Assembly: GCA_963555985.3 (NCBI GenBank)
Contig: CAUVXV020000001.1
Coordinates: forward strand, 1 to 13,668
Origin: Dehalococcoidia bacterium
Lineage (GTDB): Bacteria; Chloroflexota; Dehalococcoidia; Bin125
Length of the DNA stretch: 13,668 nt
Reading direction: 5' to 3'
Part shown: positions 3,328-12,535 of the stretch, one piece after another
Layout: every line of letters begins with the position of its first letter
Position numbering within the stretch: the first letter of the stretch is position 1
The notes under the pieces: generated by a model
Databases searched by the model: none
The model's input: the letters and a program-made list of their open reading frames with translations, nothing else
Told to the model about the DNA's origin: nothing
Program-made: the position numbers and the translations under genes

Positions 3328-6300
3328 ATGAGTCAGGCAGATTCTCCTCCGGTGTCCGCTTTGGACGATTTTCATCCGTTGGTTCGGGACTGGTTTGTCT
3401 CGCGCTTTGGGGGAGCGACGTTTGCGCAGGAGGATGGGTGGCCGGCGATTCGGACCCGGCGGGATGTGCTGCTGGCGGCTCCGACGGGGTCGGGGAAGAC
3501 GCTGACGGCGTTTCTGGCGGGGATTGACGATCTGGTGCGGGAAGGTGAGCGGGGGGCGCTGCCGGATGAGGTGCGGATTTTGTATGTGTCGCCGCTGAAG
3601 GCGCTTTCGAGTGATATCCGGCGGAACCTGGAGGAGCCGCTGCGGGAGATCCGGGCGCTGGCCGAGGAGCGGGGGGTGACGCTGCCGCGGATCCGGATGG
3701 GGCTGCGCACGGGGGATACGCCGCAGTCGGAGCGGCGGGCGATTGTGAAGAATCCGCCGCACATTTTGATTACGACGCCGGAATCGTTGTACCTGATGCT
3801 GACGGCGGAACAAAGCCGGGCGGTGCTGCGGACGGTGACGACGGTGATCGTGGATGAGATTCATGCGGTCGTGCGGGATAAGCGGGGATCGCATTTGGCG
3901 TTGTCGCTGGCGCGGTTGGATCATGTGGCCGAGCGGCGTCCGGTGCGGATTGGGTTGTCGGCGACGCAGAAGCCGATGGATCAGATTGCGGCGTTTTTGA
4001 CGGGGGTGGACGAAGAGGGCGCGGCGCTGCCCTGCCGGATTTTGGATTTGGGTCACAAGCGGGAGTTGCAGCTATGGCTCGAGACGACCGATGTTCCGAT
4101 TCCGGCGATCCCGACGCATGAGCTGTGGGACAGCATCTACGACCGTCTGGCAGAGTTGGCGGTGCAGCACCGGACGACGCTGATCTTCGTGAATACGCGG
4201 GCGCTGGCGGAACGGGTGGCGCACCGGCTGGGGGAGCGGGTGGGTAAGGAGAATGTGGCGGGGCATCATGGGTCGCTGGCGAAAGAGCGTCGGCAGGTGA
4301 TGGAGGAGCGGCTGAAGGCGGGCGATCTGAAGGCGGTGGTGGCGACGGCTTCGTTGGAGTTGGGGATTGATATCGGCAGCGTGGATCTGGTTTGTCAGAT
4401 CGGTTCGCCGAGACGAATTGCGACGTTCTTGCAGCGGGTGGGGCGTTCGGGGTCACGCGCTGGGGCGGGTACCGCACGGGGCGCTGTTCCCGACCTCGCT
4501 GGACGAGTTGGTGGAATGCGCGGCGATGGTGCGGGCGGTGCAGAGCGGGGATCTGGATCGGATTCGGCAGCCGGAGGCGCCGATTGAGGTGCTGGCGCAG
4601 CAGATCGTGGCGGAGACGGCGGCGGAATCGTGCAGCGAGGACGAGTTGTACGAGCGTTTCCGGCGGGCGGCGCCGTATCGGGGTCTGGCGCGGGAGACGT
4701 TTGACGAAACCGTAGAGATGCTGGCAACCGGCGTGGGCGAAGGCGGGGGGCGTTCGCGGCCGCTGGTGCATCGGGATCGGATCCAGGGGATGGTGCGGGC
4801 GCGGCGCGGGATCGCGTGCTGACGGCGATCGTGAACGGGGGGACGATCCCGGAGACCGGCGATTTTCGGGTGGTGAAGGAGCCGGAGGGTGCGTTCATCG
4901 GGACGGTGAACGAGGACTTTGCGATTGAGTCGCAGGCGGGGGATATTTTTCTGTTGGGCAGCACTTCGTGGCGGATCCGGCGGGTCGAGAGCAAGGGCGT
5001 GGTGCGAGTGGAGGACGCGCAGGGGTTGCCGCCGACGATCCCGTTCTGGCTGGGGGAAGCGCCCGGGCGGAGCGTTGAGTTGTCGCGTGAGGTGGGTTGT
5101 CTGCGGCGGGATGTGACGGAGACGATTGACGATGCGGAATCGACTTCGGCGCGGTTGCAGCGCGAGTGCGGGATGAACTCGGTCGCAGCGGAGCAGATGC
5201 TCGAGTACCTGGGTTCGGCGCAGGATGCGTTGCAGGTGATGCCGTCGGATACCGATGTGGTGTTCGAGCGCTTTTTCGACGAGGCGGGCGGGCAGCAGTT
5301 GGTGGTTCATGCGCCGTTCGGGTCGGGCGTGAACCGGGCCTGGGGTCTGGCGCTGCGCAAGCGCTTCTGCGTGCGCTTCGACTTCGAGTTGCAGGCGGCG
5401 GCGAACGAAGAGGGGATCATCCTCTCGCTGGGGCCGTCGCAGTCGTTCCCGCTGGAGGAGGCGTTTGGCTACCTGTCGGCGGAGAACGCGGAGCAGTCGC
5501 TGCGTCAGGCGGTGTTGTATGCGCCGTTCTGGAACACGCGCTGGCGCTGGGCGGCGACGCGGGCGCTGGCGGTACCGCGTCGTCGCGGGGGCAAGGAAGT
5601 GCCGCCGAATTTGCAGCGGATGATCGCGGACGATTTGCTGGCGGCGGTGTTCCCGGCTCAGGTGGGGTGTCAGGAGAATCTGGCCGGCCCGTTGGAGGTG
5701 CCCGATCATCCGCTGATCGCGCAAACGATGGATGACTGTCTGCACGAGGCGGTCGATACCGATGCGCTAGTGGGGGTGTTGGAGCGGATCGAGCGCGGCG
5801 AAATTCGGCTGCACGCTCGGGATACGGTGACGCCCTCGCCGATGGCGCAGAGCATTATCAACGTGAACCCGTTCGGGTTTCTCGACGATGCTCCGTTGGA
5901 GGAGCGGCGGGCGCGGGCGGTGATGACGCGGCGGACGCTGCCGGAACAGCAGCGGGATCTGGGTCGGCTGGATCCGGACGCGATTGATCGGGTGCGGGAG
6001 GAGGCGTTGCCGCCGGTTCGTGATGCGGACGAGCTGCATGAGTTGCTGATCTCGCTGGTGGCGTTGGGGGAGCGGAACCTGTCACATGTGCGCTCGCTGG
6101 CGGAAGAATTGGTTGCGGAGGGTCGGGCGGCGCTGGCGCGGACAGAGGACGGGGCGGTCTGGTTTGCGGCTGAGCACCTGTCGGCGATTCAGTTGCTGTT
6201 GCCGGAAGCGGTGATCGAACCGGCGCTGGAGGTGCCCGAAGCGGCGTTGATCGAGGTTGCGGATCGGGAGGATGCGCGGCTGCGGCTGGCGCGGGGTCAC

Positions 6301-7640
6301 ATGGAGGTCGTGGGGCCGATCACGGCGGCCGGGCTGTCGCGGCGGTGCGGGTTGTCGGCGCGGGATGTGGGCTATGCGCTGCAACAGCTTGAGGCGTACG
6401 GCGAGATCATGCGGGGACGGTTTAGCCCAGCGGAGTTCCTGGGCGAAGGGGAGGAAGAGTATTGCGACCGGCGGCTGCTGGCGCGGATTCACCGCTACAC
6501 GATCGCTCGGTTGCGAGCGGAGATCGAGCCGGTCACGGTGCAGCAGTACCTGCGCTTCCTGCTGCGCTGGCAGCGGCTGACACCGGATACGCGGTTGACG
6601 GGCAAGGCGGGGGTACGGGCGGTGATCGAGCAGTTGCAGGGGTTTGAGGCGCCGGCGGCTGCCTGGGAGCGGGATCTGCTGGCCCCGCGCGTGGCGGACT
6701 ATCGGGAGGCGTGGTTGGACGAACTGTGTTTGGCGGGGGAGATCGCGTGGGCGCGGTTGACGCCTCGGGCGGCGCGGCGCGCGCCGACCAAGTCGACGCC
6801 GATCACACTGGCGTTGCGGCGGGATTTCCGCTCGCTGCTGGCGGCGGTGCGGCGTCCTGCGCCAGCGCCGGCGGCTCGGGGGCGATCTGCGCCGCCGCCT
6901 GAACCGGATGTCGCCGAGCAGGTTCATGCCGACGGCGGGGCCGCGAGCCAGATTTTGCGGATGTTGAACGAGCGCGGGGCGCTGTTCTTCGATGAATTGG
7001 TGGACGGCACGCGACGGATCGCGACGGATGTGGAGAACGGGCTGCGCGAGTTGGTCGCGTCGGGGTTGGCTCATGCGGACGGATTCCAGGGCTTGCGGCA
7101 ACTGATTCGTCCGGCTCGTAACGGTCGGCGGCGGCGTCCGCGTTATGGCGGGGGCGGGGTGTTCATCGGGGAAGGTCCGGCCGGTCGCTGGGCGGCGTTG
7201 TCGCCGGTTGCGCCGCCGCCGGTGGATGCGGAAGAGGCGGATGAGTTGGCCGAGCGGATGGCTGTGCTCCTGCTGCGGCGCTACGGGGTGATCTCGCGCG
7301 AGTTGGCGACGCGAGAGAGTCTGACTCTCGCCTGGCGGGAGATTCTGCGTGCGCTGCGCCGCTTGGAGGCGCGTGGTGAGATTCGGGGCGGTCGCTTCAT
7401 TCAGGGTCTGATCGGGGAACAGTTTGCGTTGCCGCAAGCGCTCGATCAGTTGCGGGCCCGTGCGGCGCAAGGCGCTGGACGGGGGAGCGCGTGGTGATCG
7501 CGGCGGCGGATCCGTGCAATCTGGTGGGGATCTTGTTGCCGGGCGCGAAGGTGCCCTCGCGTCTGGGCGGGACGGTGACGCTGGTGGACGGGGCAGTGGA
7601 GGAGTCGGAGGCGTTGGCGGGGTCTGTAGCGGCGGATTAG
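3328..7640 (+). CDS. lhr: Lhr family SF2 DEAD/DEAH-box helicase, long form (~1435 aa); frameshifted at ~4450, ~4812, ~7458 and ~7483
   Basis: Motifs [49 protein letters not shown] and QRVGRSG/H. Lhr-specific [51 protein letters not shown] and AADP.NL also occur. Joins ORFs 3328-4587, 4367-4822, 4816-7497 and a tail ending at TAG 7640. Confidence 0.93.
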
Positions 7641-7662
7641 TCGTTGGGCGGCGGGCCTCCGT

Positions 7663-8188
7663 TCACTCCCACCGGTAGACCCGGCCAGCACGTGAATCCT
7701 CCAAGCCTTGTCTGACCTTCTCCCACAATTCCTCATCGGCGTGTACCGCCTTCAACAAGGCCTCGCGGTCGATTGGCTTCGGCTTGGGCACGGACCTTGC
7801 CAGGCCGGTGCGGAAGGGCACACGCATCTGTTCAAGATCGATCCGTCCTCCGTTCAGCCGGGCACTCTCGGCGAGCGCTTCCCAGCCGTACAGTTCGCCT
7901 ACGTGCGCGGTGCCCCGGACCGTGACGTTCGTAGATACCGCTGAGGAACTCGCGCGTCTCCGAATCGTCCGGCTCCTGAGCGCCTTCGCCGCCAATGTCG
8001 CTGAGCGCAATCACCGGTCCGGCATCGGAAACGTTGATCGGGTCGTCGAACAGGGGCTGTTTGAACATCAGCAGGGAAAATCCTTGTGCGGTGTAGAGCA
8101 GCGCCTGAAGCGTGCGCTCGTCAAGCGAGTCGCCACGCGACGCGGCGTGCGCGGTGAAGTATTGCGCGATCTCGTTCGCCGACGGCAT
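7663..8188 (-). CDS. Panacea (DUF4065/SocA/GepA-like) domain antitoxin-like protein, ~174 aa; frameshift at 7913-7916
   Basis: SANEIAQYF...LQALLYTAQG..L.MFKQPLFDDPI....AGPVI matches the Panacea pattern LQKLLYYAQG...PLF...I.AW..GPV. Removing one base joins it to ...LYGWEALA...EELWEKVRQGLEDSRAGRVYRWE. SD GAGGA favours ATG 8188; the alternative start is 8200. Confidence 0.75.
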
Positions 8189-8236
8189 TGGTGTCCTCAT
8201 TTCGTCGCTCAGCGGGGATGCTGGGGTAGCGTGTTC

Positions 8237-8244
8237 ACGATAGC
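8237..8244 (-). promoter_or_regulatory. Putative -10 element (GCTATCGT) of the Panacea gene
   Basis: GC-TANNNT in the short gap between recQ and the Panacea gene. Confidence 0.4.
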
Positions 8245-8257
8245 GGGAGCGGATTGG

Positions 8258-10496
8258 CTACGACTCCTGTTCCAGATGCAGAAGCGCGAGGCGAATTTCG
8301 ACTCTGGATACTCGTTCGTTGAGGATTTCGTGTATGCGTTCCCGGCTGGCGTCGGGTTCGTTTGCGAGTACGCCGCGCACGGCTGCAATGACGGTTGGGG
8401 ACGGTCCGTCGCTGCTGAGATCGACCGGTTCGCTCTTGCTGATCGCCGTTCCGAGGTGGGAAACGACGGTCAGCGGGGAGAGCATCCGGCGCTCGGCGAT
8501 GGCGAGTACGGTATGGCCCTGGCGATATAGCTCCAGCGTTACTTCCCAGCTTGATTGTTTCTCTGAATCGGTAGTCTCCCGTCGAAGCCGGCAGGATAGC
8601 TTGCTGCGGTTCTTTGGCTATGATCAAAGCGTCGGCATAACGTTCGATTGCTATAGAGCCGACGCCTTCGATTTGGGCGAGCTCCGCCTGTGTCTGCGGT
8701 GGTTCCTGGGCGAGTTGGCGCATGGCCGGGTAGGTGAGTAAGTCGTTGGCTTCGAGGCCGAGTTCGTCGGCAGTCTGCTTGCGCCAGTCGGCGAGCTCGT
8801 TGAAACGCTGTTGCCACGCTTCCGGTGGCGCCTCGTCACCAGCAGCCTCTGACATGGTTGACATGCGTTGCTTCTCCGGACTCGACGGTTCCTGTAGGAC
8901 GTTTGTCGCAGCGTGTTCGTCGATCACGCGGAGGAACGCTTCGCCATACGCTTCGACCCTTTTCAGACCGAAGCCTTTGACGTGAAGCATCTCCGACTCT
9001 GTCCGAGGCCGCTGCTGGGCCAGCGCTGCCAGGTCGCGATTGCTGGCCACGACGAACGCCGGCACGTCTTGTGCCCGGGCTAACTCCAGCCGCGTTTGGC
9101 GCAGGGCCTCGTAAAGTCGCTCTTCATCTGGCATCGGAGGTTTCGGCTCCTCACCGCCCAGCGTCGGCGGTGGATCAACGGGATTGACCCGTCGCGGCAG
9201 ACCAGCGGTGCCGCTTGGCGTCGGCGGTGGATCAGCGGGATCGACCCGTCGCGGCAGACCGGCGGCCAGCGGCCTCCGCGTCTTCACCGATGCAGAGATC
9301 GCAGTGTCCGCACTCAGGCGAGGCTGGTGATTCGCCGAAGTACTTGAGGATGGTCGACCAGCGGCAGGATTGCTGCTCGCAGAAGTCCATCATCCGGCGT
9401 AGGCGGCGGACGCGGGCTTCGCGCTCGCGTTCGTCGCGGATTTGGCGGAGGAAATACTGCTGCTGCGCCCAGACGCCGCGAGTGTAGAAGAGCAGGCATT
9501 CTGAGGGTTCACCGTCGCGTCCCGGCGCGGCCGGTCTCCTGGTAGTAACCCTCCATCGAGGGCGGCATATCGAGGTGGGCGACAAGGCGGATATCGGGTT
9601 TGTCGATGCCCATACCGAAGGCGATCGTGGCGCAGATCACCGGAGTCTGGCTGCTGCTGAACTCGTCCTGGACGCGGGCTCGCTCGTCGCCGGTCATGCC
9701 GGCGTGGTAGTGGGCAGCGGGAATACGGGCGCTGCGTAGTTTGGCGGCGGTTTCTTCGGCGCTTGAGCGAGAGCGGCAGTAGACGATGGCGGATTCGCGC
9801 GGAAGCTCACGCAGCCGCTCAATCAGACGCTCAACCGACTCACGCTTGGGCACGATCCGGAGCGTGAGGTTGGGTCGCATGAAGCTGGTGGCGAAGCGCT
9901 GCATTCGGGGGCGGTCAAGCTGGTCGACGATGTCGCGCTGCACCTGCGGAGTAGCGGTTGCGGTGAGGGCGGCGACGGGCACATCGGGGAATTGAGCGGT
10001 GAGGCGGCGCAGTTCGCGGTAGTCGGGGCGAAATTCGTGTCCCCATTCAGAAATGCAATGGGCCTCGTCGATGGCGATGAGTGCAGGCGGGCGGCGTTCG
10101 AGCAGCGAGGCGAAGCGGGGAGTGTTGACCCGCTCCGGGGCGGCGTAGAGGAGTTGGATGCCGCCGTTGGCGACCAGCTGCTCAATTTGTGCGGCGGCGG
10201 TTGTGGTGAGCGTGCTGTTGAGGTAGGCGGCGCGGAGATCGTTGGCGCGCAGCGCCTGTACCTGATCCTGCATCAGCGCGATTAATGGCGAGACGACCAC
10301 GGTGAGTCCGTCGGAGAGGACGGCGGGAAGCTGATAGCAGAGCGACTTGCCGCCGCCGGTGGGCATGAGCACGAGCGCGTCGCCGCCGTCGCGGATGTGT
10401 TGGATGGCTTCGCGTTGTTGGGGGTCGGAAGTCGGAGAAGCCGAAGTGCTGGTTGAGGGCGTCGTGGAGGGGGTCGAGCGCGGATGATTGGGGCAC
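8258..10496 (-). CDS. recQ: RecQ family helicase (~744 aa): helicase core, Zn-binding domain, Pro-rich linker, two HRDC domains, C-terminal HTH; frameshifted at ~10422, ~9522, ~9265-9290 and ~8550-8620
   Basis: HFGFSDFRP/QQREAI, MPTGGGKSLCYQLP, DEAHCISEWGHEFRPDY, LTATAT, CATIAFGMGIDKPD, YYQETGRAG/RDG, CRW...YFGE...CGHCDLC. HRDC1 is LYEALRQTRLELARAQDVPAFVV...KGFGLKRVEAYG and HRDC2 is LADWRKQTA...EGVGSIAIERYA. HTH_40-like tail TLELYRQGHTVLAIAERRMLSPLTVVSHL, ending at TAG 8258. Confidence 0.9.
9161..9265 (-). repeat. Intragenic tandem duplication in recQ (two 48-bp copies, 57-bp period)
   Basis: 9161-9208 and 9218-9265 differ at 3 positions; they encode AGLPRRVDPADPPPT and AGLPRRVNPVDPPPT. Confidence 0.95.
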
Positions 10497-10535
10497 GGCG
10501 GATTCTCGCTGGCGCGGTCGGCGCGGGGTGGAGTG

Positions 10536-10543
10536 AGCCTAGC
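10536..10543 (-). promoter_or_regulatory. Putative -10 element (GCTAGGCT) of recQ
   Basis: GC-TANNNT about 40 nt upstream of GTG 10496. Confidence 0.4.
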
Positions 10544-10581
10544 GATCGCTTGCAGCGGCGGTCTACCGGGTGTCTTGCCGA

Positions 10582-10630
10582 ACCCCCCTCTGTCACTTCG
10601 TGACATCTCCCCCCGCAGTGCGGTGGGAGA
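10582..10630 (+). repeat. REP-like double-hairpin element (family A), just downstream of the selenoprotein gene
   Basis: ACCCCCCTC + TGTCAC-ttc-GTGACA + TCTCCCCCCGCA-g-TGCGGTGGGAGA; same layout as 3197-3240 with compensatory changes in the first stem. Confidence 0.8.
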
Positions 10631-10641
10631 GGATCGTGGGC

Positions 10642-11971
10642 TTACGCCTCTTCGCCGACCAGATAGGGGATGGCGCTGCGGATGAAGTCGATCGGGTGGA
10701 CGCCTTCGGGTGGAACGGCCCCAGGACACATCACCATCCCAGAAGCCTTCGGGGACGATGAAGCCTCGCATCCGCATCAGGCGCGGTTCGCCTGCGTCGG
10801 TGATCTGCTGGCCGACCTGCCGGATCGCTTCGCCGAGCGCGGTTTCTTCGAAAATCCAGCTGTGCATGTCGTGCTGCGAGGGTGCGCCGGAGCCGGGCTG
10901 GGAGGTGACCGCCTCCTGGTAGAAGGCGCGCAGGTCTTCGACCACAAAGCGAGTCAGCAGCGGCATCTTGTGGGTCCAGTTGGGAGCGGTTGCGCGGGCG
11001 GGAACTTCGCTGAACCCGGAGCCCTCGGCGATGGCGACGATGAACGACACGACGTCGTCGATTTGCTCGGGCGTCGCGCCGCTGATGCCGACCGTGGTTC
11101 GGCCTCGGCGTCGGCGCGCCTCGTCGTACCAGGGGGTGAGCAGATCGACCTCGGCGCGCAAGGCGGATTCGAGATCGCTCAACTCCGGTTGCGGCAAGGC
11201 GACCGAGCAGGCCCAGACACCGTCTCCGCCGCCGTCGGGCGCGTCCTGGGGGTAGTCCGCGATCGTGGGCTCGGTCGCAGTCTCCAGGAGGCCCAGCACG
11301 TTGCGCAGTACGTCGCGCTGGAAGTCGGGATCGTCGGCGATGCCGAGGGGCCGTCCGAGCGGGAACGGAACCCAGAGCGCGCGCGGCGGCTTGAACACCT
11401 CGGTGTGTTCGCGGATCAGGCTGATGCCGGTGGTGGCGATGCCGTGTTGCTGGAGGAAGTGTGAGAGGGCGCCGACGGCGCTCGTGCAGGCCGGTCAAAC
11501 CGGTACGAGCAGCGCGCTGGCGACGCCCGAGTCGACCATCCGCCGGGCGATGTCCGCGCCGGCCTGCGCGAACGCAGCCGGGTTCGGACTTGCGCCCTGC
11601 ACCGAGTAGTGCCACTCGGAGGCAGCGCCGACTTCGCCTAGCTCGACCAGCTCGTGCAGCCGATCGAGCGGTAGGACGACGTTGTGGTCGCGCTGAAAGT
11701 GGGTGCGATCGAAGTTAACGCTGACGTGGGTCTGGACGAGCTCGGCGGGGTCGATGTCGTCGGGGATCAGGCGGTAGCCGTGGTCGCCGAAGCGGAAGGG
11801 GCGGTCGTCGCGGCGATGCAAGGCTGCGGTGGTAAGGAGCGCGATCTTGGCTTCCGCCAGCGGGGGTGGCGTGAGCCAGGGAGTCGTGCCGATGTCGAAC
11901 TGCGCAAAGCGCTGGATCGCGTTGCGCATACCCTGGGCTTCTTCGGGGTGGAGGTCGGAGAGTCGGACCAT
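10642..11971 (-). CDS. GrdB/PrdB-family (glycine/sarcosine/betaine/D-proline reductase component B-like) selenoprotein, ~442 aa, Sec at codon 159, with a C-terminal extension; one frameshift near 10717-10722
   Basis: ORF 11495-11971 (KIALLTTAALH, D.GYRLIP, H..FDRT...RDHNVVLPLDRLHEL..GEVG, HYSVQG, ALLVPV) ends at TGA 11497-11495. The same frame continues PACTSAVGALSHFLQQHGIATTGIS...KPPRALWVPFPLGRPLG, giving VPV-U-PAC (UxxC). Removing one base near 10720 gives ...VHPIDFIRSAIPYLVGEEA with TAA at 10644-10642. SD AAGGA precedes ATG 11971. Confidence 0.88.
11465..11483 (-). promoter_or_regulatory. Putative bacterial SECIS hairpin
   Basis: mRNA reads UGA-CCGGCCUGCACGA-GCGCC-GUC-GGCGC-CCUC. The apical loop starts with GU 18 nt after the UGA, fitting the general bacterial SECIS model. 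Confidence 0.65.
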
Positions 11972-12003
11972 TGGTGGTTCCTTTGGCGGGTTGGATTGGT
12001 GGG

Positions 12004-12011
12004 AGGGTAGC
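12004..12011 (-). promoter_or_regulatory. Putative -10 element (GCTACCCT) of the selenoprotein gene
   Basis: GC-TANNNT about 32 nt upstream of ATG 11971. Confidence 0.45.
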
Positions 12012-12046
12012 CGAAACCGGCCGGATCCCTCTGACCCCGCGCCTCT

Positions 12047-12147
12047 TCCGTCATACCCGCGCTTGCCGCGGGTATCTCGCTGAGTCGAGCACGGACGTCG
12101 GTGCAGAACGCAGCGAGATTGCCGCGGCGGAGCGCGGCAATGACGGA
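12047..12147. repeat. Inverted doublet of CGTC-type REP elements (family B)
   Basis: TCCGTC-ATACCCGCG-cttgc-CGCGGGTAT-CTCGCTG (12047-12082) and, on the opposite strand, TCCGTC-ATTGCCGCG-ctccgc-CGCGGCAAT-CTCGCTG (12147-12111), separated by 28 bp. Confidence 0.85.
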
Positions 12148-12181
12148 GTCTCGGATTGGCGACCGCCGATGTGTACAGGAA

Positions 12182-12535
12182 CTACGGCGCTTCCTCGATC
12201 GTCGCTGAGAGCGACCCCTTGCAGTGGACAATCCTCGGATCGGGGCCCCAGCCGTGGATCTGATCCTGGTGATCCTTGACCGTGTTGTAGTCGGCGGTTT
12301 CGACGATTCCGCGTCCGTGGCCGTCGATCATTGAGGCGATGGCGAACGCTTTCTCCTTGCTGTAGCCGAAGACGGCTCCGAGCATTTCGATCACGTATTC
12401 GTAGGTGTGGTCGTCGGAGTCGTGGAGGAAGAGGTGGTAGCGCTTCTCCAGCTCGCTCTCGCGATCCGCGTCGACATCTTCCTCAACGAGGATGTCTGGG
12501 CGCGGCGTGGCGGGCTGGATTTGGGCGCGGGTCAT
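12182..12535 (-). CDS. clpS: ATP-dependent Clp protease adaptor ClpS (divergent type)
   Basis: YHLFLHDSDDHTYEYVIEMLGAVFGYSKEKAFAIASMIDGHGRGIV...LSATIEEA matches the ClpS pattern; 117 aa; ATGA overlap with the upstream gene. Confidence 0.85.
   Translation of the reverse strand: MTRAQIQPATPRPDILVEEDVDADRESELEKRYHLFLHDSDDHTYEYVIEMLGAVFGYSKEKAFAIASMIDGHGRGIVETADYNTVKDHQDQIHGWGPDPRIVHCKGSLSATIEEAP

Follow-up and report, generated by a model that had tools for sequence, protein, structure and literature searches.

The minus strand of the 13,668-nt window (the whole stretch analysed here, from a Dehalococcoidia bacterium; NCBI assembly GCA_963555985.3, contig CAUVXV020000001.1) carries a PrdB-like gene at 11971..10642, with clpS upstream and recQ downstream. 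Judged from its own sequence and those of its homologues, it is very probably a genuine selenocysteine (Sec)-encoding gene of the GRDB superfamily, specifying a two-domain protein of 442 residues from an orphan marine PrdB-like subfamily. The open reading frame (ORF) begins at ATG 11971-11969 and runs for 158 codons to a TGA at 11497-11495, and reading through this codon gives the context LLVPV-U-PAC, in which U stands for Sec. The features of the locus are as follows.

10642..11971, minus strand: two-domain PrdB-like selenoprotein gene, 442 residues; in the window copy the last 25 codons are frame-shifted by one extra base
11979..11983, minus strand: Shine-Dalgarno-like AAGGA, 7 nt before the ATG, read from the sequence alone
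11273..11863, minus strand: PrdB/GrdB-homology alpha/beta domain, residues 37-233, from profile matches, model and GrdB alignment
11495..11497, minus strand: UGA codon 159, very probably Sec, from alignments and homologous loci, with TGA kept in public-run contigs
11486..11488, minus strand: Cys162 codon, second residue of the UxxC motif and proposed resolving cysteine, invariant in 42/42 sequences
11467..11483, minus strand: SECIS-like hairpin (SECIS, selenocysteine insertion sequence), 7-pair stem with a core of 4 pairs and a GUN loop that begins 18 nt after the UGA
11207..11209, minus strand: invariant Cys255 codon, in the low-confidence linker joining both domains
10645..11200, minus strand: conserved C-terminal helical domain, residues ~258-442, without Pfam family or match among solved structures
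10715, minus strand: extra base, +1 frameshift in codon 419, TT against T in the chromosomal allele; probably an assembly error

The gene spans 1330 nt, a length not divisible by three because of the single extra base at 10715 (T on the coding strand), which puts the last 25 codons out of frame. Read in frame, the window copy bypasses the TAA at 10644-10642 and stays open into the downstream recQ. The window corresponds to the complete contig C2 of its genome, and the allele on the main 3.1-Mb contig, C1 (C1:3056506-3057834), is without the extra base and encodes an intact protein of 442 residues. M1 and the N-terminal MVRL motif are conserved among 42 homologues. The original prediction for this stretch had given the ORF start and the TGA as they are found here, and had overlooked the frameshift and the conserved C-terminal domain. 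It had also supposed that the gene has its own promoter; this was not borne out, as a scan of 10400-12400 for sigma-70-like promoters, from which those of this phylum may differ, returned no site. The sole terminator-like site in the same interval lies on the opposite strand, inside the gene.

As had been proposed from the LLVPV-UGA-PAC context, the TGA lies in frame inside one domain: positions 26-222 of the 238 in the NCBIfam PrdB model TIGR04483 formed one continuous match to residues 37-233 that takes in residue 159 (E 1.9e-25). By BLASTP, U159 fell on U348 of a classical GrdB encoded beside a GrdE-like gene in another genome (E 1e-11), in agreement with a Sec enzyme of the GrdB/PrdB superfamily carrying Sec at the catalytic-loop position. 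The full-length database homologues, of ~415 residues, have Cys in an invariant PV-[U/C]-P-x-C motif, and the predicted pairing at residue 159 was thus observed with Cys in these proteins and with Sec in GrdB. Among the full-length Cys homologues, two bear the name 'glycine/sarcosine/betaine reductase selenoprotein B family protein' and one the name 'D-proline reductase (dithiol) PrdB'.

In the 74 best loci from species-representative genomes, which came from Dehalococcoidia/Chloroflexota, Acidimicrobiia/Actinomycetota, SAR116 and other Alphaproteobacteria, Gammaproteobacteria, Desulfobacterota and one Clostridiales metagenome-assembled genome (MAG), the site was TGA in 74 of 74, rather than the UAA or UAG that would have spoken for two separate genes; all the loci fetched were therefore Sec forms. 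Among 61 related genomes a match was present in 44, including 35 of the 36 belonging to the same family, and 96 of the 98 matches contained the in-frame TGA, the other two not reaching residue 159. The genome of the window encodes the Sec machinery that the prediction required, namely selA (531 bits), selB (349 bits), selD (366 bits; C1:1998583-1999506) and a tRNA-Sec with anticodon TCA (74.3 bits). The selD gene has an in-frame TGA of its own and probably likewise encodes a selenoprotein. Comparison of the window copy with the chromosomal allele revealed 56 differing codons, 47 of them synonymous and 9 non-synonymous, with the synonymous differences spread evenly on the two sides of the UGA (23 before and 24 after, one of the latter being the stop codon). 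In the public-run record over 11311-11723, 15 letters differed, exactly the C1/C2 difference count, and none of these was at 11495-11497, so that the public-run contigs keep TGA and not the TGC or TGT that would have argued against Sec. An alternative code, with TGA read as Trp or Gly, was also considered and rejected: the chromosomal allele itself ends with TGA, and the non-TGA homologues have Cys.

A hairpin with a GU loop had been predicted 18 nt past the UGA, and such a structure is present, conserved and covarying. Its 5' arm is at 11483-11477, its loop, GUC, at 11476-11474 and its 3' arm at 11473-11467; counted from the UGA, the stem begins after 11 nt and the loop after 18 nt, and six of the seven pairs form in the window. 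Across 36 distinct stretches from relatives 85.7% of cells were paired, compared with 35-56% when the partner was slid by 1-3 columns, and across 63 distinct stretches representing all six groups the value was 87.3%, compared with 36-58% in the slid controls. None of 500 shuffles reached the observed pairing or covariation. Compensatory changes were evident at pair 28:36 (GC 19, AU 14, UA 1, GU 1) and at pair 25:39 (CG 34, GC 16, GU 5, UG 2, UA 1), while the first two loop letters, G and U, were invariant. The covariation of a non-synonymous first with a synonymous third codon position is the stronger argument for the hairpin. The element has the arrangement expected of a SECIS, a stem-loop shortly after the UGA with G and U in the apical loop; it is graded SECIS-like, and we infer that it is bound by SelB.

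The protein was compared with domain families and solved structures. Residues 85-156 matched positions 274-345 of the 347-position Pfam GRDB model PF07355 at 26.2 bits, above the gathering cut-off of 22 (E 6e-06), and PF07355 is also assigned to the full-length Cys homologues in precomputed annotation. An AF2 model built from a 42-sequence alignment had a pLDDT of 91 and a pTM of 0.91. It contains an alpha/beta domain at residues ~36-240, in which a strand (152-156) leads to U159 and then to a helix (160-175), a low-confidence linker (249-251) beside the invariant Cys255, and a helical C-terminal domain (267-437). Invariant over the 42 sequences are R67, D88, D95, N97, P157, U/C159, P160, C162, R197, Q218, C255, E274, D346, Y351 and E353. 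A sequence-profile search of the PDB returned no hits at E <= 1, and Foldseek against the PDB gave no hit at E <= 0.001 for the whole model or for the C-terminal domain. With the whole model, the best matches of a wide VIA-align search (Z up to 8.6) covered residues 36-252 only and were to LacI/periplasmic-binding and short-chain dehydrogenase folds; they reflect a generic Rossmann-like alpha/beta arrangement. The C-terminal domain (~185 residues, conserved) belongs to no Pfam family. Modelled alone it gave a pLDDT of 91.5, and its best VIA-align match (Z 5.0) did not reach the level of noise that is usual with helical proteins. The family, for which there is neither a solved structure nor a dedicated annotation model, thus has a second domain that is modelled with confidence and is unlike any solved structure. 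The idea that this domain is a cryptic remnant of PrdA/GrdE was not supported, as hhalign against two GrdE-like proteins gave a probability of at most 0.1%.

Several observations weigh against the assignment of the gene as a Sec-encoding member of the GRDB superfamily. The score with the PrdB equivalog model TIGR04483 was 89.7 bits, below its cut-off of 300, and that with TIGR01918, the selenoprotein B subfamily of glycine/betaine/sarcosine/D-proline reductase, was 30.2 bits, below 65.45. By the NCBIfam cut-offs the predicted protein thus lies outside both the PrdB equivalog and the GrdB/PrdB subfamily, and by Pfam it falls in the GRDB superfamily. Taken alone, the hairpin of the window showed no extra stability over shuffled sequence (z +0.53), and RNAalifold retained a core of 4 pairs only. 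The hairpin also overlaps conserved V-G codons, and its conservation is partly driven by the protein. A scan of 10400-12400 against Rfam at E <= 1 found no SECIS family, only weak miRNA-precursor matches on an upstream palindromic repeat, and none of the public runs listed for the gene was an RNA run.

The gene had been predicted to stand alone, without a grd or prd partner, and this reading, on the genes detected in the genome, holds. The genome is a MAG, 96% complete with 7.5% contamination. A profile search of it for PF09338 (GrdE/PrdA) gave no match, while the same search was positive in 2 of 5 other genomes. A search for GrdA (PF04723, GRDA) found one place at 20.2 bits, below the cut-off of 22, with a model for which there was no positive control. 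The full grd or prd operon elsewhere in the genome, named by the prediction as the finding that would weaken its claim, is accordingly represented by neither PF09338 nor a GRDA match above cut-off. When all ORFs of at least 90 residues in the 74 loci were clustered, only the gene itself and its antisense shadows were shared between phyla. The recurrent neighbours, each in no more than 10 of the 74 loci, were an ABC ATPase, an enoyl-CoA hydratase, a short-chain dehydrogenase and a luciferase-like monooxygenase; these being large families, their recurrence is read as chance.

The genome does hold further members of the family. A whole-genome scan with TIGR04483 found three places (86.5-111.1 bits), and a second, diverged PrdB-like Sec gene, of 389 residues and 34-36% identical according to the alignment used, lies at C1:145199-146368, adjoining a carboxyltransferase gene. 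Related Dehalococcoidia (genomes G013, G018, G027, G030 and G035) have up to five diverged copies per genome, some of them in tandem arrays of two or three, together with a shorter form that matches the N-terminal domain only and again has a TGA.

Relatives of this kind have been described before. The available text of a Sargasso Sea study reports a 'proline reductase PrdB' with UxxC and pfam07355, counted as 42 Sec genes and ranked as the third most abundant selenoprotein family (PMC1088965). A family of the same name comprised 235 Sec and 110 Cys genes in the Global Ocean Sampling (GOS) data, according to the accessible part of the later survey (PMC2398784), and 'proline reductase' selenoproteins are listed for Anaeromyxobacter and Geobacter in the available text of PMC1794560. 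From motif, Pfam family and habitat, the present family would be the marine 'PrdB' of those papers; the two are set together by description. As described in the accessible text, that family (Zhang, Fomenko & Gladyshev 2005; Zhang & Gladyshev 2008) shares PF07355, UxxC, marine and largely aerobic hosts and Cys homologues, and the relatives of the present gene include SAR116, marine Acidimicrobiia and Gammaproteobacteria. The gene is therefore not hidden in the sense of being new, the family having appeared already in the 2005 and 2008 ocean selenoproteomes, among whose most abundant selenoprotein families it is reported to be in the available text of both (PMC1088965, PMC2398784). It is one more, slightly damaged copy of a known, uncharacterised orphan family, which is ordinary for the selenoprotein field.

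What distinguishes the present description is the absence of a PrdA, the second domain and the paralogues. In their available text the marine papers treat the family as PrdB and are silent on the missing PrdA, the extra C-terminal domain and the expansion of paralogues in Dehalococcoidia. No article that takes up the lack of PrdA or the C-terminal domain was found among the accessible sources, a scope that leaves aside subscription journals and supplements; the items listed on marine selenoproteins with PrdB and PrdA included none about the PrdB-like family, and those listed on Dehalococcoidia, SAR202 and sponges with selenium included, by titles and abstract openings, none on the selenoproteins of those lineages. 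The clostridial D-proline reductase PrdB (TIGR04483) is alike in that nearly the whole 238-position model aligns and Sec is in UxxC. It differs in that the present protein falls far short of the score of that model, has no PrdA and has ~200 extra C-terminal residues, and its host is not a Stickland fermenter. With GrdB, GrdF and GrdH of the glycine, sarcosine and betaine reductases the predicted protein shares a homologous domain, with 24% identity over 218 columns and Sec on Sec. In GrdB, however, this domain is the C-terminal half, behind an N-terminal domain of ~210 residues, whereas in the present protein it comes first, with an unrelated helical domain after it. The Sec motif reads U-x-x-C here and U-x5-C in the GrdB compared, and none of GrdA, GrdC, GrdD and GrdE is present, judged for GrdA and GrdE by the want of a match above cut-off.

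A scheme for synthesis and catalysis can be proposed. Translation would start at ATG 11971, and the UGA at 11497-11495 would be decoded as Sec by SelB and tRNA-Sec under the direction of the hairpin whose loop opens with GU 18 nt downstream; on the intact allele, translation would end at the stop corresponding to 10644-10642. According to the available text of a 2026 review (PMC13188914), GrdB is the selenoprotein that binds the substrate, and PrdB, its homologue in D-proline reductase, contains Sec. In the present protein, Sec is predicted to sit at the end of a strand and the start of a helix in PV-U-P-x-C, where its selenolate would attack the substrate; Cys162 would then resolve the adduct to a selenenylsulfide (an Se-S bond), and a thiol system would re-reduce that bond. 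Selenoether and selenenylsulfide chemistry is a feature of the GrdB/PrdB relatives, and redox chemistry like theirs between the selenolate and Cys162 is, by analogy, most likely here. The reaction would proceed without a pyruvoyl subunit (PrdA/GrdE) and without GrdA, and because there is no pyruvoyl partner the activation of the substrate must differ. The family-specific C-terminal helical domain would presumably supply substrate binding or a partner interface.

A substrate-specific reductase, argued from its relatives, has about an even chance of being correct, and is somewhat likelier than a generic redox protein, which is possible but comes behind it. On the latter account the protein would serve as a redox buffer, as a thiol/selenol-disulfide oxidoreductase or peroxidase of general range, rather than as a reductase that cleaves C-N or C-X bonds. 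A UxxC motif placed where a strand passes into a helix is typical for thiol oxidoreductases, the family is placed among 'thiol-dependent redox selenoproteins' in Table 3 of Zhang et al. (PMC1088965, available text), and it occurs in aerobic marine lineages and has no substrate-activating pyruvoyl partner. Against this stand the many invariant residues outside the motif (R67, D88, D95, N97, R197, Q218, E274, D346, Y351 and E353), a length of ~440 residues with a dedicated second domain, and the presence of up to five diverged copies per genome; it is these features, invariant residues, second domain and multiple copies, that suggest substrate-specific enzymes. It should be borne in mind that chemistry and substrate are drawn from distant relatives only (24% identity to GrdB), which counts against any detailed scheme. 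A more speculative and rather doubtful extension of the substrate-specific reductase is a self-sufficient Sec reductase, in which the PrdB-like catalytic domain is fused to an undescribed helical domain that replaces the pyruvoyl subunit in substrate binding or activation. Cys255 might then mark a site of processing or serve as a third redox residue, the copies in sponge-associated Dehalococcoidia might reflect substrate diversification, and the enzyme might, under oxic conditions, reductively cleave nitrogenous osmolytes of the sea or compounds that stem from dissolved organic matter (DOM). The expansion in sponge-associated Dehalococcoidia is in any case a concrete place to look for function.

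The state of the window copy was assessed from the contig as a whole. C2 repeats C1:3054802-3069691 in a strain-variant form, at 95.2-97.6% identity. The remaining small contigs, C3-C11, are in the same way duplicates of parts of C1, and this duplication accounts for both the 7.5% 'contamination' and the apparently doubled selA. Compared with C1, the window contains eight single-base insertions (4452, 4810, 4817, 7459, 7485, 9523, 10424 and 10715) and no single-base deletion inside genes, and five of the eight, that at 10715 included, are at short one-base runs. Besides the PrdB-like gene, the Lhr helicase and recQ are both split in the window, the former into two ORFs (3328-4587 and 4816-7497) and the latter into three (9512-10597, 9232-9585 and 8235-9287). 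Because the indels are all insertions, mostly at short runs, and because Lhr and recQ are split too, the frameshift at 10715 is taken, with good confidence, to be an assembly error of a low-quality strain-variant contig.

One other interpretation of these data is that the frameshift is real and the window copy a decaying allele from a minor strain, the chromosomal copy being the functional one. The extra base is present in the assembled contig, and no listed public run contains the window allele at half or more of its words. The base at 10715 is missing in all three public runs that cover it; these runs, however, come from one study and have the C1-type allele, and the intactness of the window allele is thus unproven, a further point on the debit side. 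Nevertheless decay is improbable, since eight of eight single-base indels relative to C1 are insertions, mostly at short runs, as in sequencing error, since Lhr and recQ are interrupted in the same way, and since the 47 synonymous against 9 non-synonymous differences from the intact allele give no sign of relaxed selection.

As a separate observation, the window contig looks prone to indel errors. In a database protein from another assembly, P0081 (740 residues), the tail of the present gene family, covering 37% of the query at 79% identity, is joined to RecQ domains, a fusion that is the same run-on reading as the frameshifted window gives. In addition, window positions 7641-9331 have no nucleotide match to C1 at E <= 1e-20 and yet encode the Zn-binding and HRDC parts of recQ; this segment, of 1.7 kb compared with 2.9 kb in C1, has either been replaced or diverged far more than its surroundings.

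A B subunit of a classical glycine, betaine, sarcosine or D-proline reductase, with its other subunits encoded elsewhere in the genome, would be consistent with membership of Pfam GRDB, with PrdB as the best NCBIfam hit and with a MAG of incomplete content from which genes could be missing, but is very improbable given that PF09338 had no match in a search that works elsewhere, that GRDA stayed under its cut-off, that both NCBIfam cut-offs were missed by far, that the domain architecture is different, that no such neighbour occurs in the 74 loci and that hhalign of the family with the two GrdE-like proteins was negative.

The Sec-encoding reading of the gene has consequences for its annotation. 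In a word-indexed database search the best 72 matches were fragments of 245-284 residues covering only the part behind the Sec codon; few of them were named, all as 'hypothetical protein', and most were unnamed. An exhaustive search of representatives found 4363 proteins at E <= 0.001, 2353 at 1e-10 and 642 at 1e-30, and 122 of the best 150 cluster representatives began at profile positions 157-189. The splitting of the gene by standard gene callers, as anticipated in the original prediction, is thus general and not local. Annotated correctly, with read-through, the pieces would again make up a conserved two-domain enzyme in Chloroflexota, marine Actinomycetota, SAR116 and others. That the UGA is instead an ordinary stop, leaving two genes (158 and ~275 residues) or a dead gene broken at codon 159, can hardly be sustained: gene calling with table 11 does yield exactly two pieces, matching those fragments and the representatives that start just behind the site, and the hairpin is not significant in the single sequence, but one domain model crosses the site, the Cys forms are contiguous, the TGA recurs across phyla in 74/74 and 96/98 cases, the divergence is mostly synonymous and equal on either side of the codon, and the genome has the full Sec machinery together with a covarying hairpin.

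Two interspersed repeats flank the gene. At 12040-12155, between clpS and the PrdB-like gene, lies a palindromic repeat of ~100 nt with ~199 BLAST matches genome-wide; it has weak hits to miRNA-precursor (long hairpin) models and looks like a miniature inverted-repeat transposable element (MITE) or a repetitive extragenic palindromic (REP) element. The second, at 10570-10645, directly behind the stop codon, has ~140 matches in the genome and a core of ~50-60 nt with a short inverted repeat, and public-contig depth rises there from ~16-20 to ~700. A look-alike, compared in translations only, also follows the paralogue at C1:146.4 kb. Elsewhere in the window, a minus-strand ORF of 531 residues at 1350-2945 encodes an N6/N4 DNA methylase domain and a C-terminal HNH nuclease domain.

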